Shown here one piece after another: positions 353 through 57,650 of a stretch of 64,000 nt of DNA (positions are counted from its first letter, which is position 1; each line of letters starts with the position of its first letter). The stretch is taken from the IMG/VR virus record IMGVR_UViG_3300045988_176738, positions 32,001 to 96,000 of that record; one strand, given 5' to 3'. Below the pieces are notes generated by a model that saw only the letters and a program-made list of their open reading frames with translations, did no database searches and had not been told where the DNA came from. The position numbers and the translations under genes were made by a program. Origin of the DNA: a virus.

Positions 353-1629
353 GTAAGTCTACACGAACTGTTTTAGGGAAAGTCGGAATTTTACTTAGGG
401 GTGAATATGACTCAAATGTTTCTTACAAACGTCTTGATGGTGTTACCTATAATGGCAGTTTTTTTATTTGTAGAAAAGATTGTCAAGGAATTCCAGTAGA
501 AAATACAGATTATTGGCAATTGTCTGCAAAATCTGGTGAAAAGCCCAAAAATCATATAGATTATAATACAGAAGAAGAAAAAGCAGAATTTAAAAAAGAA
601 ATTATTGATGAAGCAACTTCTGAAGTTGGAGCTTATATTGATGAAAGAAAAAGCGAGTTAGATATAAAAACAGAAGAGCTTAAAAGTGAATTATCAGAAA
701 CTGAAAGTGAATTAGAAATTGATTTAGTAAAAAAAAAAGATGAATTAATTAAAGAAGTTGAAAATGCTCAAGTTGGATTTGATGAACATGTAAGTGAAAA
801 AATTTCGGCTTTTGATGATAATGCGAGTGATAAAGCCGCGGCTTTTGATACAAATGCAGAAACCAAAACTTCGGCTTTTGATACAAATGCGGAAACCAAA
901 ACTTCGGCTTTTAATACTAATGCAAGTGATAAAACTTCGGCTTTCAATGCTAATGCAGAATCTAAAACCTCGGCTTTCAATACAAATGCAAGTGAAAAAA
1001 CTGCCAGCTTTAATCAAAATGCTAGTGATAAGGTTGCTGAATTTGATGATGTTAAAGATGGTTTATTAGGACAAGCTGATGACTTATTCGACGCTTTAAC
1101 TACAAATGAGATAAGTGGAACTGAGCTATATATAGATGACGCTAAAGCTTGCAGGGTTATTAATAGCGAGATTGATGGTATGTATCAGCAAGAAACTACA
1201 AGTGGAAAGAATTTATTAGAAGTTGTTGCAACTTCACAAACATTAAATGGTATTACATTTACTATTAATGAAGATAAAACAATAACAGCAAATGGTACTG
1301 CAACTGGCACTGCATTTTTTGTTATTGGAACTTTTAGTTTTATAGCAAATACAAATTACATATTAAATGGTTGTCCAACTGGCGGAGCAATAACTACTTA
1401 TCATATTTTAATAGCAGACACTGCAAATGCCTATGATATTGGAAATGGCTATAATTGTGTATTTACAGAAGATACAACTAAAAATATAGTAATACGAGTT
1501 CAAAAAGGAGTAACTGTAAATAATATAGTATTTAAACCGATGATAATAAAAGGTTCACAAGCAACAGATTTTGAGCCCTATACAGGTCGGAGTTTCATCA
1601 CCAAATCCGGATTATCCGCAGGTAATTGA
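349..1629 (+). CDS. tail fibre protein with tandem 11-aa repeats
   Basis: 426 aa with a coiled-coil N-terminus, about 7 copies of SAF(D/N)TNAxxKT, and a Gly/Thr/Asn-rich beta-type C-terminus. It lies just upstream of the XkdX-like gene and the lysis cassette. Confidence 0.6.
   Translation: MSKSTRTVLGKVGILLRGEYDSNVSYKRLDGVTYNGSFFICRKDCQGIPVENTDYWQLSAKSGEKPKNHIDYNTEEEKAEFKKEIIDEATSEVGAYIDERKSELDIKTEELKSELSETESELEIDLVKKKDELIKEVENAQVGFDEHVSEKISAFDDNASDKAAAFDTNAETKTSAFDTNAETKTSAFNTNASDKTSAFNANAESKTSAFNTNASEKTASFNQNASDKVAEFDDVKDGLLGQADDLFDALTTNEISGTELYIDDAKACRVINSEIDGMYQQETTSGKNLLEVVATSQTLNGITFTINEDKTITANGTATGTAFFVIGTFSFIANTNYILNGCPTGGAITTYHILIADTANAYDIGNGYNCVFTEDTTKNIVIRVQKGVTVNNIVFKPMIIKGSQATDFEPYTGRSFITKSGLSAGN
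808..1038. repeat. 7 tandem copies of a 33-nt unit (gcttttgatacaaatgc...aaaacttcg) inside the tail fibre gene
   Basis: The repetition is directly visible in the sequence and codes the SAFDTNAETKT repeats. It also generates the spurious ORFs 745..1017, 768..980 and 794..1069. Confidence 0.85.
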
Positions 1630-2659
1630 ACAAATAGAAAATGTTAAATTAATGCACGATAGTTCAAATTTATTTAACGTAACAGATTATACCATTTTAA
1701 ATTTAAATCGAAACGGAAATGCAGAAATTACAAAAACAAAAGATAATTTTAGTTTTGTAACTTCTGCCGAAGATTATTGTGGAATATACATAACAACAGA
1801 TAAAATGAAAGAATATATAGACAATGGTAAAAAAGATACAGAATATAATATTTCCCTTGATATTTCGGCAACTCAAAATACAAATATTAGATATGGAATT
1901 TCAAATGTTAAATTTATAACAATAAATACAAAAAAAACTAGAATTTCATTTACAGGGATATTATCAAAGCCATTTTCATTATATTCTATGTCACAACAAG
2001 CTGGTACTACAGTGATTGTTTCTGACATAAAAATAACAAAAAATGAGGATACAGAATATACACCATATCAAAATCAGACAATCAACATAGACTTAAAAGG
2101 CAACAAACTATGTGCAATTTCGGACACTATAAAAGACAAATTGCTAATAGACAGGAATGGCAATGTTGCACTACAGAAAAATGTTGGAAAAAATATCTTT
2201 GACGGGACAAAAAAATGGAAAAAGAGTACTTATACAAAAAACACTATATTTTATTTAACAAATACGCAGAAAGCAAAATCCTATGATGTAGGAATTTGCA
2301 ACTATTTTCCTGTAAAAAGAGTTTGGGACACGGATATATTAGGATTAGAATTATATGACTTAAATAATATTCGTGTTGGACTAACAAGAAATTCCGAAAT
2401 ACAAACAGAAGATGCATTTAATGAATGGTTAACTACACATAATTTGGAAGTATATTATGCATTAGCAACACCAGAAATAATCGATTTAGGACAACTTCCG
2501 AAATTACTAAAAACCTTTAACGGCATTAATAACATTTGGGCAGAAACAAACCTAGGCAACACAGAAATAGAGATAGAGTATGTGCAAGATGTTAAGAAAT
2601 TGTTAGAACAAACACAAGCGATAATATTAAGTAATGCGAGTGAGGAGGTGGTCAAATAA
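1571..2659 (+). CDS. tail fibre / receptor-binding protein (distal segment)
   Basis: 362 aa, rich in N/T/K beta-strand sequence. It overlaps the upstream fibre ORF by 59 nt in another frame, so it is either a separate gene or the product of a frameshift. It precedes the XkdX-like gene. Confidence 0.5.
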   Translation: MSPIQVGVSSPNPDYPQVIEQIENVKLMHDSSNLFNVTDYTILNLNRNGNAEITKTKDNFSFVTSAEDYCGIYITTDKMKEYIDNGKKDTEYNISLDISATQNTNIRYGISNVKFITINTKKTRISFTGILSKPFSLYSMSQQAGTTVIVSDIKITKNEDTEYTPYQNQTINIDLKGNKLCAISDTIKDKLLIDRNGNVALQKNVGKNIFDGTKKWKKSTYTKNTIFYLTNTQKAKSYDVGICNYFPVKRVWDTDILGLELYDLNNIRVGLTRNSEIQTEDAFNEWLTTHNLEVYYALATPEIIDLGQLPKLLKTFNGINNIWAETNLGNTEIEIEYVQDVKKLLEQTQAIILSNASEEVVK

Positions 2660-2940
2660 TGATAGATTTAAGTAAAGCATTTAAAAATGCTGTAATAAAT
2701 TTATATAAAAAGGGGATTTATACAGTAGATTATGCAATCATAGAAGCTTCTAAACTTGCCGATAAAAATAAAATAAAAGCAGATGATTATGAAGAGTTAA
2801 TGACATATTTAGTAGAGCAACAAACTAAAGAAATGGAAGAAGAGACAAAAGAAGATACAGAAACAACAGATGAGAGTCAAACAAGTGGTGATGAAACAAT
2901 AGAAAATCAAGAAGTTATTAATAATCAATCTCAAGAATAA
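2659..2940 (+). CDS. XkdX-like small phage protein
   Basis: 93 aa. The N-terminal block KAFKNAVINLYKKGIYTVDYAIIEASKL..DDYEELM resembles the PBSX XkdX family and sits in the same position, between the tail fibre and the lysis genes. The C-terminus is acidic. Confidence 0.5.
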   Translation: MIDLSKAFKNAVINLYKKGIYTVDYAIIEASKLADKNKIKADDYEELMTYLVEQQTKEMEEETKEDTETTDESQTSGDETIENQEVINNQSQE

Positions 2941-7385: not shown

Positions 7386-8396
7386 TTGGCAAGAAAACAA
7401 GAAGTATTAGATTTAACCAATCAATATTATGAAAATGCCAATGAAGAAAATAAAAGAATTGCAAATGAGTATTTAGAAAATGCTACGCATTTATCACCAG
7501 AAAGTTTAAAACAATATAAATCTGCGGCAAGAGTTTGGATTTCTTATATTAATAAATTTTTAAATAATAAAAACTTTAGAGATATTAAGCCTATGGAATT
7601 CCAGCGTTATCAAAATTGGCTTTATAATCAAGGAATATATGAAGCTAATATAAAGATGAAACGCAGTTTAGTGAGCAATTTAAACGAATATATGATTTTA
7701 TATTATGGTGATGAAGAAGAATATAAAACATTTCGTAATTTTGTAACTCAAGCAATTAAAGTGCCAGTAACAGGAAAAAAATATCAAAAAGAGCCATTAA
7801 CCATAGAAGAATATGAAAATTTATGTAAATATTTAGAAGAAAAAAAAGAATGGCAAAAACTTGCTTATTTGAAATTTACTTATGTATCAGGTTGTAGAAA
7901 GCGTGAATCTCTTAGTTTATTAAAGGAAGTTGTAAATTATAAACCAATAGAAAAAATGACAAAAGTAAAAGATGAAAATGGTGTGGAACATACAGTACCT
8001 ATAAAAAAGTATAAAACAAATCCAATTAAATGTAAAGGCAAAAAAGGAGATGCTCCTAGAAAATTAACTTTTGATGAAGATACTTTACATTATTTAAAAA
8101 AATGGCTTGCTGTGAGAGGCGAAGATGATTGTCCTTATATGTTTGTTGTTGGTAGAGGCGAAGGTGCTCATCAACCGAATGTAGCAACTCCTAACAATTG
8201 GTGTAAAGAGTTTGAACAATTTATTGGAAGAAGATTGCATCCACACCTTATTAGGTCTAGTCGTGCAACTGCATTAAAACTTAGTGGAAAAAGTATTGAA
8301 GCAATTCAAAAACTTCTTGGTCATAAATCTTCTGAAACAACAAAGATTTATATAGTTGAAGATGATGACGATGAAGAAGATGAATTATTTGTTTAA
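7386..8396 (+). CDS. int: tyrosine recombinase / phage integrase
   Basis: The catalytic core is present: CRKRES, HPHLIRSSRAT (HxxR) and KIYIVED (Tyr). It has a TTG start (MARKQEV) and an acidic C-terminal tail. Confidence 0.85.
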   Translation: MARKQEVLDLTNQYYENANEENKRIANEYLENATHLSPESLKQYKSAARVWISYINKFLNNKNFRDIKPMEFQRYQNWLYNQGIYEANIKMKRSLVSNLNEYMILYYGDEEEYKTFRNFVTQAIKVPVTGKKYQKEPLTIEEYENLCKYLEEKKEWQKLAYLKFTYVSGCRKRESLSLLKEVVNYKPIEKMTKVKDENGVEHTVPIKKYKTNPIKCKGKKGDAPRKLTFDEDTLHYLKKWLAVRGEDDCPYMFVVGRGEGAHQPNVATPNNWCKEFEQFIGRRLHPHLIRSSRATALKLSGKSIEAIQKLLGHKSSETTKIYIVEDDDDEEDELFV

Positions 8397-9494: not shown

Positions 9495-12400
9495 GTGGCT
9501 AATGAATATCAAATTAAGTTAAAAGCAGCTTTAGATGATTCTTCAATTAAGAAAGCTATTCAAAAAATTAACGATAAACAAACTATTGATTTTAAAGTTA
9601 AAGGCGATAAAGAAATATTAACTGTAACTAATAAAGTCAAAGATAATATGGGAAAAATAACTACCGAAGTTGAAAAATTTCAAAGAACTGCTGGTGGAAG
9701 TTTTGAATCTGTAGCAAGGTCTACAAAAACTGTATCAGGTGCAACAGATACATTGGCTGACCATTTTAAAAATGCAACAAATAATGTAACAGAATTTATG
9801 GAAGCTTTTGGATTATTTACTATAGCTCAAAAAGCAGTTGAAGAAATGGTTTCTGCGGTAAAAGATATGGACGATGCTTTAACTGAATATAAAAAGGTTT
9901 CAGATTTAACTGGAGCAAGTTTAGATTCTTTTATTCAAAAAGCAACTACAATTGGTGAAACTGTTGCTAGAACAAGTACCGAAATGGTAGAAGGTGCTAC
10001 TGAATTTAAAAAGTCTGGTTATAGTGATGAAGATTCACTTGAATTAGCAAGAATAGCGGCTTAATGATATAGGTCGAATATATAGGAATATATATAAAGA
10101 ATAGGGTGAATTGCTGGAAAACCCTTAGAGATTAACAAACTAAAACATAGTTAGTAATAACAAATGTGAATGTTTAAAAATTGTTAATATTGGGCAATCA
10201 GCAGCTAAGCAACTATTGAAATGTAGTTGAAAGTTCAACGACTATCGAAAGCAATCAGAAATTGATAAATGTAACTATATAAAATATAGAATAAGCTACT
10301 AAGTAGACGAAGCGAGTAGAGTAGAGCCAGGTGGTAGGTTTTGAATGAAATTAGTTCATATAAATCCTTTAAATCAAAGTGCCCTATACCTAATAAAAGG
10401 TAAAGATGTAGTCTTAGCTTATATGAAAATATAAGATATTAACACAATTAAAGAAATTTATGTTAATATAAACTGGAATATCAAAATGTTGCAGATGAAC
10501 AAATGAGTGCAGGAGACGCTGCTAATTTTATTATCGCTCAAATGAAAGCTTTTAATATTGAAGCAGGTAATGCTGAACATATAATTGATGCGGTTTTTAT
10601 GAGCTGCATGTAAAAAACAGGGTTAATTGCGGGAAAGTCTTTAGAGTTTTATATACCAAACAGTAATAGTAATATTATTGTGGCTTAATTAATTATTAAG
10701 GTATGGTAAAAAGTATAAAAATTAGATAATCCGCAGCTAAGCAACTATTGAAATATAGTTGAAAGTTCATCGACTATCGAAAGCAATCAGAAAAACTGAT
10801 AAATGTAACTATAGAAATATAGAATAAGCTACTAAGTAGACGAAGTGAGTAGAGTATATGGAAGTGCTATCCATAGAAATTCCCTGCCCTATAAAAATTT
10901 ATAGGTGAAGATATAGTCAATTCTTATATGAAAATATAAGTGATTAAATAAATTATAATAAAATGGAGTAATATGAAAAACAAAATAGATACACAATATG
11001 TTAAAAATTATTTAAGTAAATATTCAAAAACGGAACTTTTAGATGAGTATATTAATTATAAAAAAAAAATGAAGTTTAAATGCGAATGTGGTAATATCTT
11101 TTATAGAAATTTTAGTAATTTATTACGAAATAATTATTGTAAATGTAAAGATTGTACTACAAAAATAAGAGTTGATAATAGAAAGTTAAAAATTGAAGAA
11201 GTGGATAAAATTATAAAAGAACATGGATTGATAAGAATGGGCGAATTCATAAATACTCGCAATAAAATCCTCTGTATGAATAAAGATGGTTTTTTAGGAA
11301 AAATAAATATAACTAATTTAAAAAAAAATAAAATGTTTACAGTATTATCACCAAAATTTGACCCAGAATCAACGATTTATAACTCAAATAAAATAATTAA
11401 TAATAAAGGATGTAAAACTAAAGTTTTAAAATTTTTAAATAACGAATCTCTTCAAAATAGTAAAGTTTTGTGCAAATGTGAATGTGGAAATATATACGAT
11501 GTCAAACTTTCAAGTTTAATATATAACAATGCCTATAGGTGTAGAAGTTGTTCTAAAAATGAATCTAGTCTTGAAAAAAAAGTAGATTCTTTTTTAGTTT
11601 CAAATAATATATTATTTGAAAAGCAAAAAAGATTTAATGATTGTAAAGATAAAAATACACTTCCTTTTGATTTTTATATTCCATCTATGAACATATGTAT
11701 TGAGGTAGATGGTAAACAACATTATACAGTAATAAATTTTAGTAATAATTTTGAAATATCTAAATTACAATTTGAAAAAATAAAAAAACATGATATAATA
11801 AAAAATGAATATTGTAAACAAAAAAATATAAAACTAGTAAGAATTTCTTATTTAGAAATTCAAAATGATGAATATATAAAAATTTTAAATAATTTATTTA
11901 ATCTATCATAATTTGCAACTATGATATAATATAAAAGAAATGAAGTATCAAATAATTATGCTGTTTCTAGTGCGGATTTAGCAAACAATTTAGGCATTGT
12001 AAGTTCAACTATGGCGGCTGGTGATACAACTTTGGAACAAACCTTAGGATTGATGACGGGAATCGTTGAGATAACTAGAGATGCTTCAAGAGCAGCAAAT
12101 GCTTTGAAAACAATTGGACAAAGAATAAGAACAGTTTCTGAAGATGGAGAAAGCTATGTCGCTAAATTACAAAGTTCTTTTGATAAATATGGAATAACAG
12201 TAGACATAGTTAATAGAAAAACAGGTGAAATGGAATCAACCTACAATATTTTAAAAGGTATTGCTGCACAATGGGATAATTTAAATGATGCTCAAAAACA
12301 AGAAATTGGTGAATTAGCCGCTGGTAAACAAAGAATTACAGACTTTAACAATATAGAGTCCGTTCCAAGAAATTGGTTCGTAAAATAACATATCTAATTG

Positions 12401-15400
12401 CTGGAAATCCTTAAAGCTATACAACTAAAGCAGAATGATGAAATAAGCATAAATGTAAATGTTACGAAAGTAGAAAAAACAGTATAGATGGTGCATGGTT
12501 AAACCCTAAACACTTTAAAAATAGGAAATCAGCAGCCAAGCTACGAATAGTAGAAGGTTCAACGACTATCCCTGATGGGAGTAGGGCATAAGCTTAATGT
12601 TCGAAATGGTATGCACCTTTAAAAGGTGAAGATATAGTCTATACATATATGAAAATATATGAGAATTTTATCAAAAAAAAAAAAAAAAAGGAAGAGTGTA
12701 TTAAATAAGTAGAAAACTCGACATTCAATATATAACTGAATGTTTTAAAAATGAGGGTTATAAATTGACTTCAAAAGAATATAAAAATAATAAGGAAAAA
12801 TTAACAGTTGAAGATAAAAAAGGTTATAAATATCAAATAAATTATAATAACTTTATGTGTATGAAAAAGAAATCATTAACTAAATTTCATTATAGTAATA
12901 TTTATACACCTACAAATATACAACTATATTTTGATGAAAATAATATAAATTTAAAAATATTAGATATAACTCCAAGAAATATAAAAGTTAAAACTGACAA
13001 AATAAAATTTATATGTGAATGTGGAAAAATATTTGAATCCAATTTTCAAAATATATATTATAATAAAACAAAAAGATGTAAAAATTGTTCTCTTCGTAAA
13101 TCTGAACTTGAATGGAAAATTTCTGATTATTTAGATAAAAAAAAAGTTAAATATATAGAACAATATTCTTTTGATGATTGTAAAATAAAAAGAATTTGTA
13201 AATTTGATTTTTATTTACCAGATTATAATTTAATAATAGAAGTTAATGGCGAACAACATTATTATGAAAATTCTAATTTTAGATTGTCTCTATATGAACA
13301 ACAAATAAGAGATGATTATAAGAAAAAATATTGTATAAAAAATAATATAAAATATTTAGAAATTCCATTTTGGGATATCAGAAATAATAATAATTATAAA
13401 ATAAAAATTGATAAAATTCTAAGTTAGATTAGCGACCTAACTTAAATAAATTAGTAATGCTTTAATGCAAAACTTTGGAACAACATTAAATGCAGTTGAA
13501 GCAGCTGAGAATTCTATGGGTTCGGCTTCAAAAGAAAATGAAAGAGCAATGGATTCTCTTCAAGGAAAAATCCAAGAATTAAAAAGTGCTTTTGTTACAT
13601 TAGCAACTAATACAATAAATTCACAAACAGTTAAGTCTATTGTTAGTTTAGGAACAACTATGTTAAAGTTTGCTAATAGTGATGTAGGACAAGTCATAAT
13701 AAAAGTTTTAGGGCTTGCAACAGCATTAAAAACTGCTAGTAAGGCAATTTCTGCATTAGGTAAGTTTACGGGTATTTCTAGTGCAATGAAATCAGCAACA
13801 ACAGCATTTTCTGAAGCTTCTGCTGGTGCAGTTGGATTTACTGCTACATTAAAAGGGACAGCGGCAGCAACGAAATCATTAACTGTAGCTCTATTATCAA
13901 ATCCTTTATTTTGGGGAACAGTAGCAATTACAGCTGTTACTGGAATTATAAACAAGTATGAAGAATTACAACAAAAGAAACTAGATTTAGTTTCTTCAAC
14001 TCAAGAAGAAGTTAATTCTATTAATGATGAATCTAAAGAACTTGAAAATTTTTCTAATGAAATGAAAAATGCTTATGAATCATCAGATACATTAAAAGAG
14101 AAAAAAGATACTTTAAAAACATATCAACAGCAATTAATTGATAAATATGGGGACGAAATAACTGCTTTAACAGATGTTAAAAATGCAAATGATTTATTAA
14201 ATAAATCATATGATGAAACAGTTAATGTATTAAAACAAGTAGAAGAAGGTTTGTTAGATAAACAAGTTGCGGCATTAAATGAAAATAAAACAAGTAGAGA
14301 TGAACTTTTAAAAACAGAAACAACAAATATATTAATCTCTAAGAAACAATTGGAAAGTATAGCATCAAATGAAAAAGAATATAGTGCGCTTATTAGTTTA
14401 CTTGAAGATTCTGCTAGAAGTGCAGGAATGTTATTTTCTACTAATAAAGCTGGAGATAAGGTTTTAGCAGGTAATGCAGAAGCATTAGTAGATTTTTATA
14501 ATAAAGTAGAAAATGGGATTACAAGTTTAAATGATTCTTCTCAGACTGCTTGGGGAGAGATGAAAAATCATAGTGAATTTATGTTTAAATCTTTAGAGGA
14601 AGATTATAATAAATTTTCAGAATCTGCCAAACAAGCAGATGAATTAGAATATAAATCTTTCATAAAAAATCATCAAGATGAATTCAATACATATAAAGAT
14701 TTGTTAGAAAAAAGGCAAAAATTAATAGAGCAGTACAATTCTTCTAAAACAAATGTAGAAAGACAAAAAATAATAGAAGAAATAAATAAAATGCAACCTG
14801 ATGTTATGGATGCTTATTCAAAATTATTTACTCAAGCAAAATTGGGGGCAGTTCAAGGATTAAAAGATACTTTTGGTGAGGACTCTCAAAAGCTTCCCGA
14901 TTTAGTAGATTTTAGTGGAATATCTGGAGTTAATGCTACGGGTTTAGATACTTTAATGCAAAAATTAGAAAAATCAGCAATTTTAACAGAGGATTTAAAA
15001 AAACAAATTGTTGATATGAGACAAAAGATAGAAGCTTCTGGTAATACAACTGCATTAGAAAGTTATGACAAACAACTTTCAGATTTAGGTATTACAGTAA
15101 ATGATTCAGCTGTTTATTGGCAAAAATTAAGGGATACAGTAAAAAATACTGATGATTATTTTGAAGCAGCATCAGGAATATGGAAAACACTTAAAGATGA
15201 AGGTGTAGATATAACTGATGAAGCCATTACTGGGATGGTAGAAAAGTTACTTTCTGGTGAAACTTCTTTTAGTGATTTCTTTGATTTTTTAGAAGAAAAA
15301 GTTAAAGATGCTGGTGGAAATATTAGTGATACTGTTCTTCAAACATTAGATAATTCTGCGGCTGCACTTTCTGAAGCAATATCGGGTGTCGGACAAGTAC

Positions 15401-33069: not shown

Positions 33070-33184
33070 GTTTTACCTCCTTTTGAAAAATTTTAAGGTA
33101 TATAATTATATTCCTTGTTTTAAAAAACGCCTTAAAATTGATTTTCGTGCGTTGTTTTTTTGCCTTTTGTAATTTACTTTATAC

Positions 33185-33213
33185 ATTATACACTATAAAT
33201 TGAAAATTGTCAA
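33185..33213 (-). promoter_or_regulatory. consensus sigma70 promoter copy (– strand)
   Basis: The reverse complement reads cttgacaattttcaatttatagtgtataat, giving TTGACA-17-TATAAT. Confidence 0.7.
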
Positions 33214-33220
33214 GAGTTTT

Positions 33221-36200
33221 TTATAAAATTTTATATTTTTTTAATGTGAAATAATTATTTTTTGAATAATATTCTTCACATCTTATAAGTGAACCTTTTT
33301 TTATCTTACCACAAGAATTATATGTTTCATTAAAAATTGTAAATCTTGCTTGAACTCCACTTCCCAAACTTTGTGTTATAATAGAATATCCAAATTGGAC
33401 ATTATCTTTTTTTCTATTAAGAGGAAAAATATCTTTAACTAAAAGTGATTTTCTATCTTCCTCTTTGCCTGTATTTGAAATATATCCTAAATATTCTTGT
33501 TGTATTTGTATTTTTTCTTGCAATGTCATATCTGGAATTTTTAATGCTTTTACAAAGTCATTTATCTCATCTAATATTTTTGGCATATTTAATATTGTAT
33601 ATGATTTTAAAATATTTCCATTTTTACCTCTATCATTAGAATAATTTGCAACAATTCTTTCAACTTGAGGATTTTCTAATTTTCCCTTAGTTAAAGTTTT
33701 TGCTGTTCCATTTTTAAGTTTATTAAATATTGTTACCATTTCTAAAAGTTCATTTACATTTCCGAAATCTGAAAAGAAATCAAGTTTAATTAATATATCT
33801 AATTGTCTTGAATTTATTCCTATGCTATTTGTAGCAAATAACAATTGCATAAAATTATCATAATGATTTTGTGCAATGTTATAAAGTTCCTCGGCACAAC
33901 TATCATTTAAATATTTTATACTTCCAATTCCTTTGTAAATAGAATTTGTTGATTTATCTAAAGAATATTGCGACCTAGATTTACCATATTTTATAGGTTT
34001 TAATTTGATTTTAAAATATTTAAGTTCTTCAATTAATTTAGATGTTCTATCTTGGTCATCTTTATATGAATTTAAAACTACGGTATAATATTCCAATGGA
34101 TAATGTGATTTTAAGTAAGCACCATATAGACTGTCATAAGCATATGATAATGAATGTGAATTCGAGGTAATTAGTCCACTTTCACTTATAAAATTATGTG
34201 CTGGTGCTTCCATTTCAATATCATAAACTTTATCAGTTTTTATATATTTTATTAAAACTATTTTCGATGTTGTTACTGAAATCTCTTTTTCATCAGAATG
34301 TTTTTCATAAATATCTTTAACATATAATTCATCACCTATTTTTAAATTGTCTAATCTCATTTTTCCATTAGGCGTAGGAAACTTATGATTCATTGTGCAA
34401 TCTATATAAGCACCACATTCAGTTTTAACTCTATATATATCAGCAATTCCACTATCATAAATATTTACAATTTTATTTTTTCTTACTTTTTTATCATCGT
34501 ACATAGAAAGTGCATTTCCATATCCTTGGCTTTTATATTTTCTATACAATGGAAGATGATTAGTTTCTTTTGCATATACTATATTATTTGCAATATTATA
34601 CATTTCTTCTACTGTAATATTTTTGCCATTAGCACCAGCCTTTTGAATAACTGTATCTCCTGCAATGCAAGCATTAAAAGAATAGTGAGCAGCATCTTCT
34701 ACTACTTGCCAAGTTTCTTCAAAACCTTTGCTAAATCCAGTTTTTTCAATCCAATTTTCAAGAAGTTTCTCTTTTAATTTGTTAAGTTCATCTTCTTTAA
34801 ATTTTTTCTTTGCAATCTTTTTTATGATTGTGTATGTTTCAGATTCTTCTATTCCTAACCAAATAAGATATTTCATAATTGATTCCTGATAAATCATTCT
34901 ATGTCCACTATCATCAAGTAAATCATCTAATTCCTTAATATTTGTAGTATAATCTTTCCTATCTATAAAATCATCTAATAAGCTAGCACAGCCAGGTCTA
35001 ATAATTGCAACAAATGCAGACATATCAGATATACTTTTAGGTTTATATTGTCTTACGAGATTTGTAGCATAATTACTATCCGCTTGATTTATAGTAGTTG
35101 TAAGTCCTTTTTCATAAATTTCATAAGTTTTTTCATCTAAAAGTTGTTCTAATTTTCTTATTGTTGGAACTTCTATTCCTGCAAGTTCACAGGTTTTATT
35201 TATAATGTCCCAAACAGTAACTGCTAATAAATCGTTTTTCAAATATTTATAATTATCTGATTCATAACTACTAATATTAGCACATATAACATCACCCGCT
35301 TTAATCAAACCGACTTCTCTGCTTATAGGTTTATCCATTAAAAGTGTACTACAAGGATGCTGTGAAATACTTTCTACTACACCAACAAAATGTTGACTTT
35401 CATCTATTAAAGTTTTCCATTTATCATCTTTATAATATTTGCTTTCAGTATATGATTTTTTTGCTTGTGCAAGTTCTGCTAAATTAATTGCAACATCATT
35501 ATATTCATTAATATTCATATCTTGAGATTTACAATACAATCTAAAGGCAGAAGATGTTTGTAAAGGTTTGTAAGCCAACATCCAATAACAACCATCATCA
35601 CCCAATAATTTTTTAGATGCTTCATAAAAGGGTTTTTGATTAGAACAATTAAAATCTATATCAGGCAGGCTTTTAGTGCCTAATATTCTAGCAGCACTCA
35701 TAAATCTACTTGGAAATAATGTTATACAACTTCCAATTCTGTCAATATCAGTAAAATGAAGTAATTTATTTATATAAAAACTTGGAGCTGAACCTCTTCC
35801 TGTTTTTGTTATTACACCACCATATTTTGTAGTGGCTAATTTTATTAATTCATAATTTAGTAAAAAATAATCTGCCATATTGGTATTTTTAATTGTATAA
35901 AATTCTGATTTTATTGAATTTTCATACTCTGAAACCCTTGATTTATCAATGTTTATTTTTTCGGATTCCCACTCTTTTTTTATAATTTCTTCTAATTTTT
36001 CAATTGGATTATCATAAATTTTTGGCATCTTGATTTCCTTGTTAATATCTAATTCTTCACACTTGTCAAAAATTAAAGTATTATTTAAAGCTTCTTTTAT
36101 TTGTTCATCATTTAAAATTCCTTGTTTATGGTATCTATCAAAAATTACTTCACTCGTAGGATAATCTAAAATAAAATCATTTTCTTCTTCATAGATTAAT

Positions 36201-36859
36201 CCTTTAGCTTTCAAAAATAAATCTCTATATTTACTATCTTCTGGTGAAATATAATGACTGTCATTTGCATGAATAATTTTTATATTATATTTTTTACTAT
36301 ATTCTAAAATCATTTTATTATATTTTGCTTGACTATCACAATTATGAGCTTGAACTTCTAAATAAAAATTATTACCAAAATAATTTTTCATTTTTTGAAT
36401 CCATTCATCTCTGCCATCTTCATTTCTCATTCTTCCAGCAATACAAGCAGATGTTACAATTATATTTTTAGGATTAATTGAAAACAAAAGTTCATCATCT
36501 ATTCTTGGTTTATAATAAAATCCATCAACATTACTTTTTGACATAAGATAATTTAAATCTTTATAACCATCTGTATTAAGAGCAATTAAAATCAAATGAT
36601 AATTAGATTTGTCCTTTTCGAGTCTATTCTTAACATAATATGCCTCTAAGCCAGCAATTAATTTCAAATTATATTTTTCAGTTAAAGTTTTTGCTTCATA
36701 AACATTTCCTATATAACCATGTTCTGTTGTAAAATAAGTTGTGTGACCTAATTCTAATGCTCTTTTCATATAATCTTCGGGTGAAGTTACAACATCTAAT
36801 GTACAAATATTACTATAATAAGTATGTTTATGATAATTATTATATCTTACATTTTCCAT
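33221..36859 (-). CDS. dnaE: DNA polymerase III alpha subunit (DnaE-type, PHP domain) containing a mini-intein
   Basis: The N-terminal PHP domain is YHKHTYYSNICTLDVVTSPEDYMKRALELGHTTYFTTEHGYIGN. The conserved FN(K)SHSAAYA..AYLKAHYP extein block is split as ..HYSFNA|intein|SHSLSYAYDSLYGAYLKSHYP. Confidence 0.85.
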   Translation of the reverse strand: MENVRYNNYHKHTYYSNICTLDVVTSPEDYMKRALELGHTTYFTTEHGYIGNVYEAKTLTEKYNLKLIAGLEAYYVKNRLEKDKSNYHLILIALNTDGYKDLNYLMSKSNVDGFYYKPRIDDELLFSINPKNIIVTSACIAGRMRNEDGRDEWIQKMKNYFGNNFYLEVQAHNCDSQAKYNKMILEYSKKYNIKIIHANDSHYISPEDSKYRDLFLKAKGLIYEEENDFILDYPTSEVIFDRYHKQGILNDEQIKEALNNTLIFDKCEELDINKEIKMPKIYDNPIEKLEEIIKKEWESEKINIDKSRVSEYENSIKSEFYTIKNTNMADYFLLNYELIKLATTKYGGVITKTGRGSAPSFYINKLLHFTDIDRIGSCITLFPSRFMSAARILGTKSLPDIDFNCSNQKPFYEASKKLLGDDGCYWMLAYKPLQTSSAFRLYCKSQDMNINEYNDVAINLAELAQAKKSYTESKYYKDDKWKTLIDESQHFVGVVESISQHPCSTLLMDKPISREVGLIKAGDVICANISSYESDNYKYLKNDLLAVTVWDIINKTCELAGIEVPTIRKLEQLLDEKTYEIYEKGLTTTINQADSNYATNLVRQYKPKSISDMSAFVAIIRPGCASLLDDFIDRKDYTTNIKELDDLLDDSGHRMIYQESIMKYLIWLGIEESETYTIIKKIAKKKFKEDELNKLKEKLLENWIEKTGFSKGFEETWQVVEDAAHYSFNACIAGDTVIQKAGANGKNITVEEMYNIANNIVYAKETNHLPLYRKYKSQGYGNALSMYDDKKVRKNKIVNIYDSGIADIYRVKTECGAYIDCTMNHKFPTPNGKMRLDNLKIGDELYVKDIYEKHSDEKEISVTTSKIVLIKYIKTDKVYDIEMEAPAHNFISESGLITSNSHSLSYAYDSLYGAYLKSHYPLEYYTVVLNSYKDDQDRTSKLIEELKYFKIKLKPIKYGKSRSQYSLDKSTNSIYKGIGSIKYLNDSCAEELYNIAQNHYDNFMQLLFATNSIGINSRQLDILIKLDFFSDFGNVNELLEMVTIFNKLKNGTAKTLTKGKLENPQVERIVANYSNDRGKNGNILKSYTILNMPKILDEINDFVKALKIPDMTLQEKIQIQQEYLGYISNTGKEEDRKSLLVKDIFPLNRKKDNVQFGYSIITQSLGSGVQARFTIFNETYNSCGKIKKGSLIRCEEYYSKNNYFTLKKYKIL
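34160..34669 (-). mobile_element. mini-intein (170 aa, Hint domain only) in DnaE
   Basis: It starts CIAGDTVI (block A). The C-terminal blocks F/G read VYDIEMEAPAHNFISESGLITSN, followed by a +1 Ser. There is no endonuclease domain, and the penultimate residue is Ser rather than His. Confidence 0.7.
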
Positions 36860-37408: not shown

Positions 37409-38536
37409 TTAATATGGCATTTTAATAGGATATTCTAACTTATCTTTATATACCTTTGTATCCCATTTATATTGATAATTAAATTCAGTTTCATTACTAA
37501 AAAATCTTCTTGTTTGATAATCATAATACATTCCAACAGATAACCCATTTTTACCTGTAAATCTATCTTTCAAAACATCTACAATTACATCATAGGGAAT
37601 AGGTTCTTTTACCCAACCACCTTTCATATTTTTGATTCCTTCTTTGTCTTGTTTGCTAACCCTATATAGACTAAAACATCTATGAGCCAAATCTGTCATT
37701 GACATAGAACCTTGAATATCCATTATATTCATTCTTCTAACCATATCCATTTTATGAGGGTGAATTACTAAAAATATAACAACATTAAACTTTTTAGCAA
37801 AACTAATCAACTTTTTAATAAATTCAGTTTGTTTATCCCAACGACTTTCTTCAGTGTTTCCCAAATCAACCGCAGTTAAATTATCGACAATTAAAAGTTT
37901 ATCTCCAAATTTTCTAACACTATCTTCCATAGATTGCAAAATAGAATCAATATCATTATCAGCTTCATCTTTATAAATATGAACTCTTCCTTTATAAAAA
38001 TTATCCATTTGTTTTTTTGCTTTTGGGTCAACTTTAAAATAAGTTGAATTATTTTTATTATAAGTTACTAAATTTCTTCTGCCAGCAAGAGGATAATTAA
38101 GCCAATTTTTTGCCATAAAATTAGGAAGTTCTTTTGAATAAAGCCAAATATTTAAATCTTGCTCAAGTGCATTACACATAATTTGAGATAAAAAGCTAGA
38201 TTTACCTGTGCCATTAACACCTGTAACAATATTAAAACTTCCAAATGGAATCTTCATTAATGCTTTATCTAATTCTTCAATTCCAAGAATCATACCATCA
38301 AGTTCATCTAAATCAACATCTTGTATTTCTGAATAATCAATAATACTATTTACTGGTGTTTCTGTAGCATTTAAAATCAAATGAGATACCATTTCTTTTC
38401 CACCCCAATAGAGAACTTCATTAATATCTTTTGTTTTGTGCCCATTAATTTCATGTGGAATTTCCACAAATTTTGTTCTCCAACTGCCAAGTCTATAAAT
38501 AATATCTTTTTGTAATTTTTGTCCGAGGTTCATCAT
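37409..38536 (-). CDS. DnaB-like replicative helicase (RecA-fold C-terminal domain)
   Basis: GVNGTGKSSFLSQIM is the Walker A motif. LLIVDNL is Walker B, and HPHKMD is an H-motif-like block. Confidence 0.75.
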   Translation of the reverse strand: MMNLGQKLQKDIIYRLGSWRTKFVEIPHEINGHKTKDINEVLYWGGKEMVSHLILNATETPVNSIIDYSEIQDVDLDELDGMILGIEELDKALMKIPFGSFNIVTGVNGTGKSSFLSQIMCNALEQDLNIWLYSKELPNFMAKNWLNYPLAGRRNLVTYNKNNSTYFKVDPKAKKQMDNFYKGRVHIYKDEADNDIDSILQSMEDSVRKFGDKLLIVDNLTAVDLGNTEESRWDKQTEFIKKLISFAKKFNVVIFLVIHPHKMDMVRRMNIMDIQGSMSMTDLAHRCFSLYRVSKQDKEGIKNMKGGWVKEPIPYDVIVDVLKDRFTGKNGLSVGMYYDYQTRRFFSNETEFNYQYKWDTKVYKDKLEYPIKMPY

Positions 38537-39302
38537 TATCAGAGCAAATAATTATTTCTTCAAATTGTTGTAACCAATCCCAATTTTCATTAATCCAATG
38601 AGTATTTCCTGCACCAAGCGGAACAGAAACAGCATTTGTAAATCCAGATTCAATAAGCGAAGCACAATCTATTTCTCCCTCCGTAATTATTAAAGGTGCT
38701 GAAACATTGATTCTATTCATATTAAAAAGTAAAGGTGTTGTATCTGCATTTTTTTGACACCAACATTTGTTTTCTTTTGGTCTAATTTTTCTTGCTGGGC
38801 GATATTTTACCATAGTCAAAACATCATTTAAATCAAAATAATTAAATACAATATTTCCATTATTATCTTGTCTAATGTCTAAATGATTTAATGTTTCTTT
38901 TGATATTTTTCTTTTAGATAAATAATTTTCTACTTGTTCTCTATGTTCACATTGTTCTTCATGAGGATATCTATATTCTCGTTTTGTTTTTGTTAAATGT
39001 TCACCAAATGTATATTTTATATCGGCAAGTTCAAATAATTTTTGTACGGATTGAATATATGTCAACCCTGTATTCATATAAGCATCTATTATATCAACAT
39101 TTTTTGAACATCCAAAACAATGATAAGAATAGGATTTAGGATTATATACAAAGCTTGGAGTTTTTTCATCATGAAAACAACAAAGAGCTTTTAAATTTTT
39201 CTCATCAAAATGCTCTAAATTTAACAATTCCGCTATTTTATAAGCATTTTTTTCTCCAAGCTTTTCTTTTGCTTCTTTAATTAATTCTTTTTCTATAAGC
39301 AT
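38493..39302 (-). CDS. DNA primase (CHC2 zinc finger + TOPRIM)
   Basis: CCFHDEKTPSF..YHCFGCSKN is the Zn finger. IITEGEIDCASL and ICSDNDEP are the TOPRIM motifs. It overlaps the helicase gene by 44 nt. Confidence 0.8.
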   Translation of the reverse strand: MLIEKELIKEAKEKLGEKNAYKIAELLNLEHFDEKNLKALCCFHDEKTPSFVYNPKSYSYHCFGCSKNVDIIDAYMNTGLTYIQSVQKLFELADIKYTFGEHLTKTKREYRYPHEEQCEHREQVENYLSKRKISKETLNHLDIRQDNNGNIVFNYFDLNDVLTMVKYRPARKIRPKENKCWCQKNADTTPLLFNMNRINVSAPLIITEGEIDCASLIESGFTNAVSVPLGAGNTHWINENWDWLQQFEEIIICSDNDEPRTKITKRYYL

Positions 39303-42512: not shown

Positions 42513-43060
42513 ACATAATTATATATTTGTTTAATATTATTTATTTCAGTTCCATTCCAATTGTTATTCCAATCGGCATTTTCCCTATTTCTAAATAATA
42601 TTTTTAAACTAGCATTACTATCATAAAGATTTTTTTGATTGTCATCTATAAATACCCAATCCTTTAAATCTAATGATGATTTATCTTCTATACCTTCAAG
42701 AACTCCTATAAAATTTAAATTTATTTTTTTTATAAGAATATTATTTTTTATAAAATCTTTTTTTAATTGTAAATTTTTTGAACTTCCAGCACTATATATA
42801 ATTAAAGGGTATTTTTTTGATAAATCTTCTAATGTTTCAATTGTATTTGGTTTAAAAGTTAATCTTTGAAACAATCTTTTATCATTCCAAACATTATTTA
42901 TTTGTTCAAAAGTAAGTGTAGGATAAGCATCTTTAAAATCCCACCTATTAACATCACTTGCTTTTGCATGAAGATTATAATCTTCATTAAGTATAGATAC
43001 AATTGCCTCTATACTATTTACTAACACTTCATCGAAGTCGAATGCAATTCCTTTATACAT
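42509..43060 (-). CDS. 5'(3')-deoxyribonucleotidase-like HAD hydrolase (NT5C family)
   Basis: GIAFDFDEVL is the DxDxV motif I, and IIYSAGSSK is motif II-like. Confidence 0.55.
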   Translation of the reverse strand: MYKGIAFDFDEVLVNSIEAIVSILNEDYNLHAKASDVNRWDFKDAYPTLTFEQINNVWNDKRLFQRLTFKPNTIETLEDLSKKYPLIIYSAGSSKNLQLKKDFIKNNILIKKINLNFIGVLEGIEDKSSLDLKDWVFIDDNQKNLYDSNASLKILFRNRENADWNNNWNGTEINNIKQIYNYV

Positions 43061-44045
43061 AAGACACTTCCTTTCTAAATGGATTAAATGTATTTATATT
43101 TTCTTGTATTCTTCTTTGAACTGTTGTTTTAGCATATATACGAGTTGTCATTATACTTTCATGTCCTAAATTTTCTTGTACTACATCAAGTGGAACACCA
43201 TTATTTAATGCAAATGTTGCATAAAAATGTCTTAATGTATGAGCTGTCACATTTTTTTCTTTGACATTTATTCCGGCTTTTTCTGCAATTTTCTTTAAAC
43301 TATTATTAAAATTACTATCGTTCATTTGACATCCAGTTTCACTAAGAAATATTAAATCTTTATTTTTTTCTATTTTATTTAAATAATCTTCATAATTTTT
43401 AAATCCTTTATATTTTACAGTTTTTCTTAAAGAATTAAATGTAGTTCGAGATAAAACAATAGGTTGTTTTCTTTCATTATTTATATAATCCTCAAGCATT
43501 TCAGCTACTTCATCATGCAATATTACATATCTTTCTTTACTACCTTTACCCTTTATTTTAAACACATTTCCAGTAAAGTCAGATATTCTTAAAGACATAA
43601 GTTCGCTAAAACGCATCCCCGTAGTTGTAAATAATGTTAATATAGTATTATATTTTTTTCTGTCTTTTATAACATCAAACATCTTCATAAATTCTTCTTC
43701 TGTTGGAATTTCTTTAATTTTTTTTGGAACTTTAACTCTTACAGATTTTGTAATTATATTCTTTTCGAGTATTTCTTCATCTACTAAAAATCTAAAGAAA
43801 CTTCTTATAACTGCTAATTTAGTATTTATACTGCTTAAAGAATTTCCGTTAGATAAAAGATATTCTTTATATTTTATAATATCTTCTTGCTTTAAATTTT
43901 TTATATTTTCTAAATCATTAATTTGTGTTATATGAAAAAACTCCTTTAAAAATCCTTTATAATAAGATAATGTATTAGTTGGATTTTCTCTATTTGTCTC
44001 AATACATCTATAAAATAAATTTAGCTCTCTTAATAATTCATTCAT
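43053..44045 (-). CDS. tyrosine recombinase (XerC/D-like) under an early promoter
   Basis: GMRFSEL (R), HTLRHFYAT (HxxRH) and TTRIYAKT (Tyr) are present. Confidence 0.85.
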   Translation of the reverse strand: MNELLRELNLFYRCIETNRENPTNTLSYYKGFLKEFFHITQINDLENIKNLKQEDIIKYKEYLLSNGNSLSSINTKLAVIRSFFRFLVDEEILEKNIITKSVRVKVPKKIKEIPTEEEFMKMFDVIKDRKKYNTILTLFTTTGMRFSELMSLRISDFTGNVFKIKGKGSKERYVILHDEVAEMLEDYINNERKQPIVLSRTTFNSLRKTVKYKGFKNYEDYLNKIEKNKDLIFLSETGCQMNDSNFNNSLKKIAEKAGINVKEKNVTAHTLRHFYATFALNNGVPLDVVQENLGHESIMTTRIYAKTTVQRRIQENINTFNPFRKEVSYV

Positions 44046-56299: not shown

Positions 56300-57650
56300 T
56301 TCCTATAAAAAACATATTTTACCTCCTTTTATTCATAAAAAGTTGACGCTCCCCCAAGCTTTAGCTCAGGGGATTCTTGCTTCACCCATTACGGTTATTA
56401 TCACACCTTTTGGCAGTTTTCCCACAATGTCCACAAGCTTTTAGGTTCGGTATCGCCCATACCTACCATATTTTTAGATTACTAACAATCTTAATCCTTC
56501 TTGTTTTATATTCTTAGCTGCATTTATATCTCTATCTATATTGGTTGTTCCACAATTAGGACAATCCCAATATCTGATAGTTAAGTCCTTTAGTATTGGA
56601 TTTTGAAAACCACAGCAATTACATATCTGACTTGATGGAAACCATTTATCGACTTTTATAAGATTTCCACCTCGTTCTTGTAATTTGTAAGCTAACATAT
56701 CCAAAAACATTCCATATCCATTATCTAATGTAGCTTTGCCATTTCCAAAACCTTTATTAGATATAACCCTTATATTAAGACTTTCTACACATACATAAGC
56801 ATACTGTTTGGCTATCGCAGTAGACTGTTTATGCAGATAATCCTTTCTCTGATTTGCTATATGTCTATGAATTTTAGCAACCTTTTTCTGCTGTTTATAA
56901 TAGTTCCTGCTACCAATTACTTTATTACGAAGTTTTCTTTGCTGTTTAGCAAGATTATTTGCTGACAGTTTGTAATAATGAGGCATATTAGCAACTACCC
57001 CTGTGTCGCTTACATACAACCCATCTGACTTATAATCTAACCCAGTTGTGTTGTCCTCGGTAGGGGTAACTTGTACTGGTTCTTCTTCTATAATCTCAAA
57101 AAGAATAGATGCCTGATAGGTTTCATCCCTGTTTTGAGTAATTGTAGCTGACTTAATTCGTAAACATCTTGTATCAAGGCTGATTTTAGCTTTTACTTTA
57201 CCAACTTTCGGGAGTTTGACATAATTTTCGCCAACTTCGATATTGTTATTCGTAAAGTTTGTAGTATATGACTTCTTTGCTTTATGTTTATTCTTATACT
57301 TTGGATGCTTTCCGAGATGTTTAAACATCCTCTGGTAACCATCTTCCAAGTGATATATTGCATTTGTCAAAGCAAATTTATCTACTTCTTTAAGCCAAGC
57401 GTATTCTGTTTTAAGATTATGGTTACAATACAAGTTCATATCAAATTTACTGAGGTGACTTTCTTTATTTTTATATCGTTCTTCCTGAACGGAAAGTATC
57501 TGGTTATACACAAACCTTGTACATCCAAAAGTCTTTTGGAAAAGTTCTGCTTGTTTTTTATTTGGATATAATCTGTAAACAATAGCTCTATTGGTTTTAA
57601 TCATATCAAGCTCTCCTTTCTGCCGACTTAGGTCGGCTAATATTTTGTTG
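56300..57650 (-). mobile_element. IS200/IS605-family tnpB-only element, with a left-end hairpin and a putative 3' omega-RNA region
   Basis: It has a TnpB ORF, and an LE-like hairpin gccgacttaggtcggc at 57622-57637 just upstream of tnpB. A GC-richer structured segment (56335-56470) lies immediately 3' of the tnpB stop, which is where omega/reRNA maps. Local GC is higher than the surrounding sequence. Confidence 0.55.
56474..57604 (-). CDS. tnpB: TnpB (IS605 OrfB-family RuvC-like RNA-guided nuclease)
   Basis: The N-terminus AIVYRLYPNKKQAELFQKTFGCTRFVYNQ is the OrfB HTH. The C-terminus CNCCGFQN..WDCPNCGTTNIDRDINAAKNI carries the Zn finger and RuvC-III. Confidence 0.8.
   Translation of the reverse strand: MIKTNRAIVYRLYPNKKQAELFQKTFGCTRFVYNQILSVQEERYKNKESHLSKFDMNLYCNHNLKTEYAWLKEVDKFALTNAIYHLEDGYQRMFKHLGKHPKYKNKHKAKKSYTTNFTNNNIEVGENYVKLPKVGKVKAKISLDTRCLRIKSATITQNRDETYQASILFEIIEEEPVQVTPTEDNTTGLDYKSDGLYVSDTGVVANMPHYYKLSANNLAKQQRKLRNKVIGSRNYYKQQKKVAKIHRHIANQRKDYLHKQSTAIAKQYAYVCVESLNIRVISNKGFGNGKATLDNGYGMFLDMLAYKLQERGGNLIKVDKWFPSSQICNCCGFQNPILKDLTIRYWDCPNCGTTNIDRDINAAKNIKQEGLRLLVI

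Follow-up and report, generated by a model that had tools for sequence, protein, structure and literature searches.

The DNA examined here is a 64-kb window of the IMG/VR virus record IMGVR_UViG_3300045988_176738 (all positions below are window coordinates). It is phage DNA: besides dnaE it encodes tape-measure and tail fibre proteins, integrases and a number of HNH homing endonucleases. Its dnaE gene, which encodes the replicative DNA polymerase DnaE (Pol III alpha type), is interrupted by an in-frame insert that is very probably a splicing-competent class-1 mini-intein and the no longer mobile remnant of an HNH homing intein, with splicing predicted from the sequence and from a structural model. 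A first-pass annotation, made from the sequence alone, had already placed a 170-aa intein at 34160-34669, beginning with Cys (block A), ending in Ser-Asn and followed by Ser at position +1. When the DNA was read directly, the coordinates proved exact, the flanks were as described and all of these residues were present, so that both the observation and its interpretation were correct. To these, the present analysis adds a putative HNH-bearing ancestor, an allele whose insertion site is exactly empty, a large and essentially unannotated family of uncultured-phage DnaE inteins ending in Ser-Asn or Cys-Asn, and two registers of insertion.

The insert and its empty-site allele

The insert comprises 510 nt, that is, 170 in-frame codons (CIAGDTVI...GLITSN), and is located between the FNA and the SHS of the DnaE fingers motif, in the context ...VEDAAHYSFNA / CIAGDTVIQK...SESGLITSN / SHSLSYAYDSLYGAYLK. 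The precursor is encoded by one continuous open reading frame (ORF) of 1212 aa, the intein not being divided between two genes. This ORF is intact and possesses all of the DnaE domains (PHP, DNA_pol3_alpha, DNA_pol3_finger and HHH_6 in Pfam), and the NCBIfam bacterial DnaE models cover its residues 3-733, after which the alignment stops. Four separate database entries (P0001-P0004) are 1212-aa proteins near-identical to the window DnaE (98-99%), each with the 170-aa form of the intein. An ORF of 130 aa also runs antisense over the intein region (34385..34777, + strand); it is of low complexity, AT-rich and most likely spurious.

The ends of the insert can be defined by comparison with a natural allele from which it is absent. 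This allele was found in a large protein collection as P0007, a metagenomic protein of 1042 aa, which equals the window protein minus residues 731-900 with four substitutions elsewhere. Its DNA was recovered from two separate sample assemblies (loci L001 and L002) and has 7 mismatches to the window dnaE over 3129 aligned positions (99.8% identity). At the junction, L001 and L002 read TTT AAT GCC / TCA CAT, whereas the window reads TTT AAT GCT [TGC...AAT] TCA CAT; the empty-site DNA of L001 is the region around TTTAATGCCTCACATTCA. Because the empty allele has exactly 510 bases fewer, the ends of the intein are fixed as Cys1...Asn170. One might otherwise have considered a class-2-like reading, in which the intein starts at the Ala before the Cys, but this is excluded since the empty allele retains that Ala (FNA/SHS).

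Hint fold, splicing residues and the intein family

The first-pass annotation had proposed a Hint-domain search as the check on its intein reading, and a Hint fold is what both Pfam and Foldseek show. Searched alone, the insert matches Pfam PF14890 (Intein_splicing) with an E-value of 2.6e-11 and 44 bits (cutoff 35.8), and TIGR01445 (intein_Nterm) matches ORF residues 731-829 with E 1.3e-9; the feature is well beyond what chance would give. Among solved mini-inteins, its sequence matches are Ssp DnaB, Npu DnaB, gp41-1 and Npu DnaE. An AlphaFold2 (AF2) model of the insert, built from an alignment of 11 family members, has a mean predicted local distance difference test score (pLDDT) of 89.5 and a predicted template modelling score (pTM) of 0.82. 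The best Foldseek matches of this model in the PDB are the Ssp/Npu DnaB, Mtu RecA and Npu/Ssp DnaE mini-inteins (E 1e-10 to 1e-8), with template modelling (TM) scores, normalised to the target, of up to 0.87; the PDB matches listed are nearly all inteins, together with a few hedgehog autoprocessing or bacterial intein-like Hint domains.

An exhaustive HMMER search with the 170 residues returned 1373 cluster representatives at E <= 1e-3, including 63 at E <= 1e-30. The best 150 representatives are 36-66% identical to the window intein (E down to 2e-59); both junctions were readable in 131 of them, and residue conservation was scored on a set of 140 sequences. All 131 inteins with both junctions are found in DnaE at the same motif, 117 of them at Y[SG]FNx^...^SH[SA] (junctions marked ^), where x is mostly K (56), R (26) or A (22). 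The HNH signature CxxC...HH...CxxCH is present in 87 of the 131. The blocks of the family, which is defined here from metagenomic proteins, can be written as CxxGxT...TxNHKFPT...VYD[VI]EM..P.HNF...G[IL]VT[SC]N, a pattern that the window intein also follows.

Members of the family come from IMG/VR viral contigs as long as 133 kb, from four contigs of metagenome-assembled bacterial genomes, and from one GenBank gut-phage record. A megablast search of GenBank phages with the window dnaE gave no match, and tblastn with the intein gave distant matches only, with no close relative in annotated GenBank phages. The family hidden Markov model (HMM) detected no second intein copy in the 64-kb window. 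Two family representatives, P0151 and P0212, apparently have another intein of this family at a more upstream position, following ...RPGCME / ...RPGTLE, and some phage DnaE genes thus appear, from their sequences, to hold two related inteins at different sites.

The residues that take part in class-1 splicing are all present in the window copy. Beyond those whose counts are given in Table 1 (Cys1, Thr92 and His95), Asn170 is found in all 140 family members, Asp150 in 120 and His158 in 134; conservation in blocks F and G was counted from right-aligned C-termini, as hmmalign misplaced the C-terminus of the window intein. The penultimate residue, which in class-1 inteins is commonly but not obligatorily His, is Ser169. 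The first-pass annotation had described such a Ser as uncommon but known; the penultimate residue of Npu DnaE is also Ser, so that Ser169 is no bar to class-1 membership, and within the 140-sequence set this position is Ser in 69, Cys in 63, A in 3, G in 3 and His in none. The Ser-Asn end is the norm of the family, not a peculiarity of the window copy. A class-3 intein, which would possess a WCT motif with a Cys in block F as branch nucleophile and usually no Cys1, is ruled out, since the window copy has Cys1 and, at the conserved acidic position of block F, Asp150.

The same annotation had described the element as Hint-only, and no HNH or LAGLIDADG domain is found in the window intein using Pfam, which reports Intein_splicing only, or the family profile. 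Of the latter, the window intein matches positions 1-129 and 225-268 only, the HNH region (130-224) being missing, and the AF2 model has a linker of about 6 disordered residues at the former endonuclease loop. Sequence and model together support the assignment of the insert as a Hint-fold class-1 mini-intein without an endonuclease domain.

The ratio of non-synonymous to synonymous substitution rates (dN/dS) of the splicing domain is 0.15 against locus L003, which carries a close sister intein, and 0.12-0.40 against distant relatives, similar to that of the flanking extein (0.09-0.57), though in three distant pairs dS is near or above 1, that is, saturated, and those values are rough. The splicing domain is under purifying selection.

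Probable endonuclease loss, predicted splicing and mobility

The sister intein at locus L003 (protein P0005) possesses the same junctions but is 266 aa long, with a splicing domain 96% identical to that of the window. The window intein is without 288 bp (96 codons, in frame) that are present in L003 between D126 and E127, and the HNH domain of the P0005 intein (Pfam PF01844, residues 172-214, 22.5 bits against a cutoff of 21.4) falls within the missing stretch. The sole low-confidence segment of the structural model, residues 122-127, coincides with this deletion scar. A different deletion, of 65 residues, is found in P0006. In the next-closest phage group, 268-aa inteins occur beside inteins of 204, 195, 190, 189, 184, 176, 164 and 162 aa whose deletion end points differ; with the addition of 201 aa, these are the lengths that independent deletions have produced among the relatives.

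Extein clusters that are <=5% diverged contain full-length, shortened and empty states together, which is the pattern that one would expect from the homing cycle of invasion, endonuclease decay and loss. From these comparisons we infer that the "mini" state is recent and that the window copy derives from an intein with an HNH endonuclease, the change having been a deletion in the window copy. The value of these alleles lies in the natural series that they form on almost identical phage backgrounds, where the insertion site is exactly empty, occupied by an HNH-bearing intein or occupied by one of two different deletion derivatives, and this series is an unusually clean system for the study of homing, endonuclease loss and its effect on splicing. 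The L003 dnaE is itself a mosaic relative to the window, with 114 mismatches concentrated at gene positions 0-450 and 1250-1750, a distribution that indicates recombination.

According to the proposed mechanism, dnaE would be translated as a 1212-aa precursor, in which an N-S acyl shift at Cys1, aided by Thr92 and His95 of block B, would be followed by transfer of the N-extein to the hydroxyl of Ser+1. Cyclisation of Asn170 would then be aided by Asp150 and His158 of block F in place of a penultimate His, and an O-N shift would yield a 1042-aa polymerase with the FNA-SHS fingers motif restored (predicted spliced-junction peptide, GFEETWQVVEDAAHYSFNASHSLSYAYDSLYGAYLK) and a free 170-aa (19-kDa) intein. 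In the ancestor, an HNH endonuclease would have occupied its usual loop, that between blocks B and F, and the element would have spread by cutting intein-free dnaE alleles, until one in-frame deletion removed 96 codons, including the HNH domain, from the window copy. As this domain is lost, the window intein should no longer home by itself, and it would persist because only its exact removal restores the polymerase.

Several points weigh against this account. The penultimate His, which helps Asn cyclisation in many inteins, is absent, as it also is in the efficient Npu DnaE; the internal deletion of 96 codons is accompanied by substitutions clustered round the scar (P to S, G to E, P to S), in an intein whose splicing is a prediction from sequence and model; and that DnaE is the sole replicative polymerase of the phage is not inferable from a 64-kb window. 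The missing His and the altered loop are also what one might see in a dead Hint relic that does not splice, and that is either retained as an inserted domain of the polymerase or inactivates a dispensable copy of dnaE. We give this possibility next to no weight: all of the splicing residues are intact and conserved across the family, the dN/dS values given above are low against the HNH-bearing sister and the distant relatives, the 170-aa form recurs in the four separate and slightly different entries P0001-P0004, and the ORF is intact with every DnaE domain present. Furthermore, the FNxSHS fingers motif is interrupted by the insert, and a polymerase that kept a 19-kDa domain at this point should be inactive.

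An intein that splices may also be kept for a purpose, for example as a conditional switch in which redox control via Cys1 and Cys91 delays maturation of the polymerase. Conditional splicing has been documented for inteins of replication proteins, with mycobacterial DnaB as an example (PMC7360933), and Cys91 does stand beside Thr92 in block B. However, this residue is Cys in only 75 of the 140 family members and is, therefore, not conserved family-wide, and the sporadic presence and absence of the intein within lineages <=5% diverged is the pattern of a selfish element. Since intein-free alleles exist at 99.8% DNA identity, the intein is dispensable to the phage, and a regulatory role is improbable.

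That the mini-intein is still mobile in trans would require an endonuclease from elsewhere, for which a candidate is the free-standing HNH gene that adjoins dnaE on its upstream side. There is a precedent in phage T4, where the neighbouring free-standing HNH gene of the mobE/I-TevIII system homes a defunct element in trans (PMC2790892). In the present case 2.2 kb separate the gene from the insertion site, the family profile gives no match to it even though that profile includes the HNH region, and its presence is uncorrelated with the state of the intein at six loci: the window has the mini-intein and the gene, L020 the mini-intein without the gene, L001 and L002 an empty site with the gene, L003 the HNH intein without the gene, and L019 a partly deleted intein without the gene. 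In L003, L020 and L019 its slot is occupied by an ORF of 50-52 aa, and because the gene is present in the window, L001 and L002 and replaced in the other three, it is a separately segregating mobile gene. Mobilisation of the intein by this route is, therefore, very unlikely, and a splicing-competent but immobile mini-intein is the reading that we prefer. In the distant relatives L004, L005 and L008, an HNH_3/NUMOD4 ORF overlaps the start of dnaE.

Table 1. Features of the intein-bearing dnaE and the adjoining endonuclease gene (window coordinates)
Feature	Position	Strand	Basis
dnaE precursor ORF, 1212 aa	33221..36859	-	PHP, pol3_alpha, finger and HHH_6 domains, broken by the intein
N-extein, aa 1-730, ends ...HYSFNA	34670..36859	-	NCBIfam DnaE models align up to residue 730-733
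Predicted class-1 mini-intein, 170 aa, Cys1...Asn170	34160..34669	-	Pfam PF14890, AF2, Foldseek; exact absence from P0007/L001/L002
Cys1 codon TGC, N-terminal nucleophile	34667..34669	-	Direct DNA read; Cys in 139/140 family members
Predicted three-helix insert after block A, intein residues 20-48	34526..34612	-	AF2 helices H20-28, H30-35, H39-48
Block B, T92-M-N-H95 (TxxH)	34385..34396	-	T and H in 140/140 family members
Deletion scar, D126/E127	34289..34294	-	288 bp including HNH domain missing relative to L003/P0005
Blocks F and G, VYD150IEMEAPAH158NFISESGLITS169N170	34160..34228	-	Family conservation; alignment to Npu DnaE IntC ...VYDIGVERDHNFALKNGFIASN
Asn170 codon AAT	34160..34162	-	Direct DNA read
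Ser+1 codon TCA, opens C-extein and conserved SHS motif	34157..34159	-	Ser+1 in 116/117 family members at the site
C-extein, aa 901-1212 and stop codon, begins SHSLSYAY	33221..34159	-	ORF and empty allele
Free-standing HNH endonuclease gene, 177 aa	36864..37397	-	phrog_99, E 2.9e-36; weak Pfam HNH_3; 4 bp upstream of dnaE

Insertion registers, known inteins and other features

Two registers of insertion, one codon apart, are found among the 120 close homologues listed. The window clade, P0067 and P0120 read FNA^[C...SN]^SHS, whereas 75 other intein-bearing homologues, which make up the nearest outgroup, read FN^[C...VVSN]^CSHS, that is, one codon upstream and with Cys at +1. The inteins of both registers are 63-66% identical, have their HNH domain in the same location and are clearly homologous. 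A further 37 of the 120 are intein-free (35 FN-C-SHS and 2 FN-A-SHS); the 35 that retain Cys at position x are relatives of the upstream-register group, and elsewhere x is usually K, R or A. In the wider family, the upstream register is found in 13 of the 131 representatives, with +1 being Ser (FN^SSH, FN^SPH, FN^SAH) or Cys.

Each register matches the nucleophile that its extein has available, and we put forward tentatively, as something short of an even call, that one family has "slid" by one residue and left the extein Cys as a footprint. Such a slide could have come about if each junction had undergone a compensating one-codon indel, or if a homing event had been mis-registered, and one plausible route would be the loss of the x codon at the N-junction together with the gain of a nucleophile codon at the C-junction. 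In a neighbour-joining tree of the inteins, one clade of upstream-register forms could not be distinguished from several. A literature search with limited access returned no description of a one-residue shift in an intein insertion site, nor of the extein string CFNKSHS. The register difference could also throw light on the way in which inteins become adapted to their insertion sites or remodel them.

According to Novikova et al. (2016; PMC4760082), the fingers domain of PolIII-alpha is an intein hot spot, with sites a-d and g lying within 75 residues and site a being that of the cyanobacterial split intein. On that account, an intein in the replicative polymerase itself is expected biology, that is, a known class at a known hot spot. 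The cyanobacterial split DnaE inteins (Npu and Ssp) resemble the window intein in host protein, in fingers motif and in their class-1 Cys1, and they too are without a penultimate His (Npu, ...GFIASN; Ssp, ...AIAAN), Ser or Ala having been reported at this position in cyanobacterial DnaE inteins (PMC5874633). The end of the window intein aligns residue for residue with the Npu DnaE end ...HNFALKNGFIASN, and Npu DnaE is the best PDB sequence match to its C-terminal half (E 1.8e-4).

The window intein differs from these in being contiguous, in using Ser+1, in its extra three-helix insert and in its probable HNH-bearing ancestry. The sites differ as well: in the Ssp DnaE precursor structure 1zde (...AIAA(A)CFN) the intein precedes C-F-N with Cys at +1, and the cyanobacterial site lies before the residue that is Ser in the window Y-S-F-N-A-S-H-S, four residues upstream of the window site. 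This offset rules out that the window intein is allelic with the cyanobacterial one, as do its contiguity and an overall similarity that is no higher than to the DnaB and RecA inteins; in whole-domain matches, the DnaB and RecA mini-inteins are equal to or better than DnaE. The natural series described above suits asking why a Ser-Asn or Cys-Asn C-terminus works without a penultimate His, as it does in the biotechnologically prized Npu DnaE, and a compact, contiguous, Ser+1-using relative of the Npu DnaE type would be a candidate splicing tool.

The engineered and natural mini-inteins Ssp DnaB, Mtu RecA and Npu DnaB possess the same horseshoe Hint fold, with the endonuclease removed at the same loop as in the window intein (Foldseek E 1e-10 to 1e-9, target-normalised TM 0.78-0.87), but they are only 17-21% identical to it and about 137-158 aa in length, compared with 170 aa. 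The window intein is longer because of the helical insert at residues 20-48, which contains many invariant positions and makes it about 30 aa longer than the matched solved mini-inteins of 137-142 aa.

In-frame HNH endonucleases are known from phage inteins (Dalgaard et al. 1997, as cited in bioRxiv 10.1101/2025.01.02.630785). The sister alleles P0005, P0013, P0067 and P0120, like most of the family representatives, have such a domain in the loop that joins blocks B and F, whereas the window intein does not. Among the intein hosts that the same preprint gives for actinobacteriophages is DNA polymerase III alpha. The best GenBank tblastn match is MT835601.1 ("Bacteriophage sp.", human faeces), an unannotated record with a DnaE mini-intein at the identical site (...FAKYSFNK^CVSFRT...GIVTCN^SHAAAYAI); this intein is 142 aa long, 27% identical to that of the window and without the helical insert.

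Other mobile elements are found in the window. A group I intron (12336..12661, +; Rfam RF00028, 74.4 bits, E 5e-17) lies in the structural-gene module, and just upstream of it is a 312-aa HNH/homing-endonuclease ORF (10973..11911, +; phrog_559, E 3.5e-50); the intron is probably a mobile one with its own endonuclease, interrupting a phage gene. A third free-standing HNH_3 ORF, of 232 aa (27496..28194, -; Pfam E 2.3e-21), is also present in L001 (12831..13529). Of the three ORFs at 7386..8396 (+), 43053..44045 (-) and 56474..57604 (-), two are tyrosine-integrase-like (phrog_1, E 3e-35 and 2e-53) and one, of 376 aa, is transposase-like (phrog_506, E 8e-103). ARAGORN detected no tRNA genes in the 64 kb.

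Two further differences concern the surroundings of dnaE and the replication genes. In L003, dnaE and the HD-domain gene are separated by two additional small ORFs, of 156 and 67 aa (10002..10722 of that locus), which are absent from the window (33070..33220) and from L001. A primase (269 aa, Zn-ribbon DnaG and Toprim) and a DnaB-like helicase (375 aa) are encoded at 37409..39302 (-) by ORFs that overlap by 44 nt in the window, L001, L002, L003 and L020, whereas in L019 (89%-related; 798..2690) the primase-helicase is a single ORF of 630 aa, a difference for which a true splitting of the gene, a fusion or a programmed frameshift could account.

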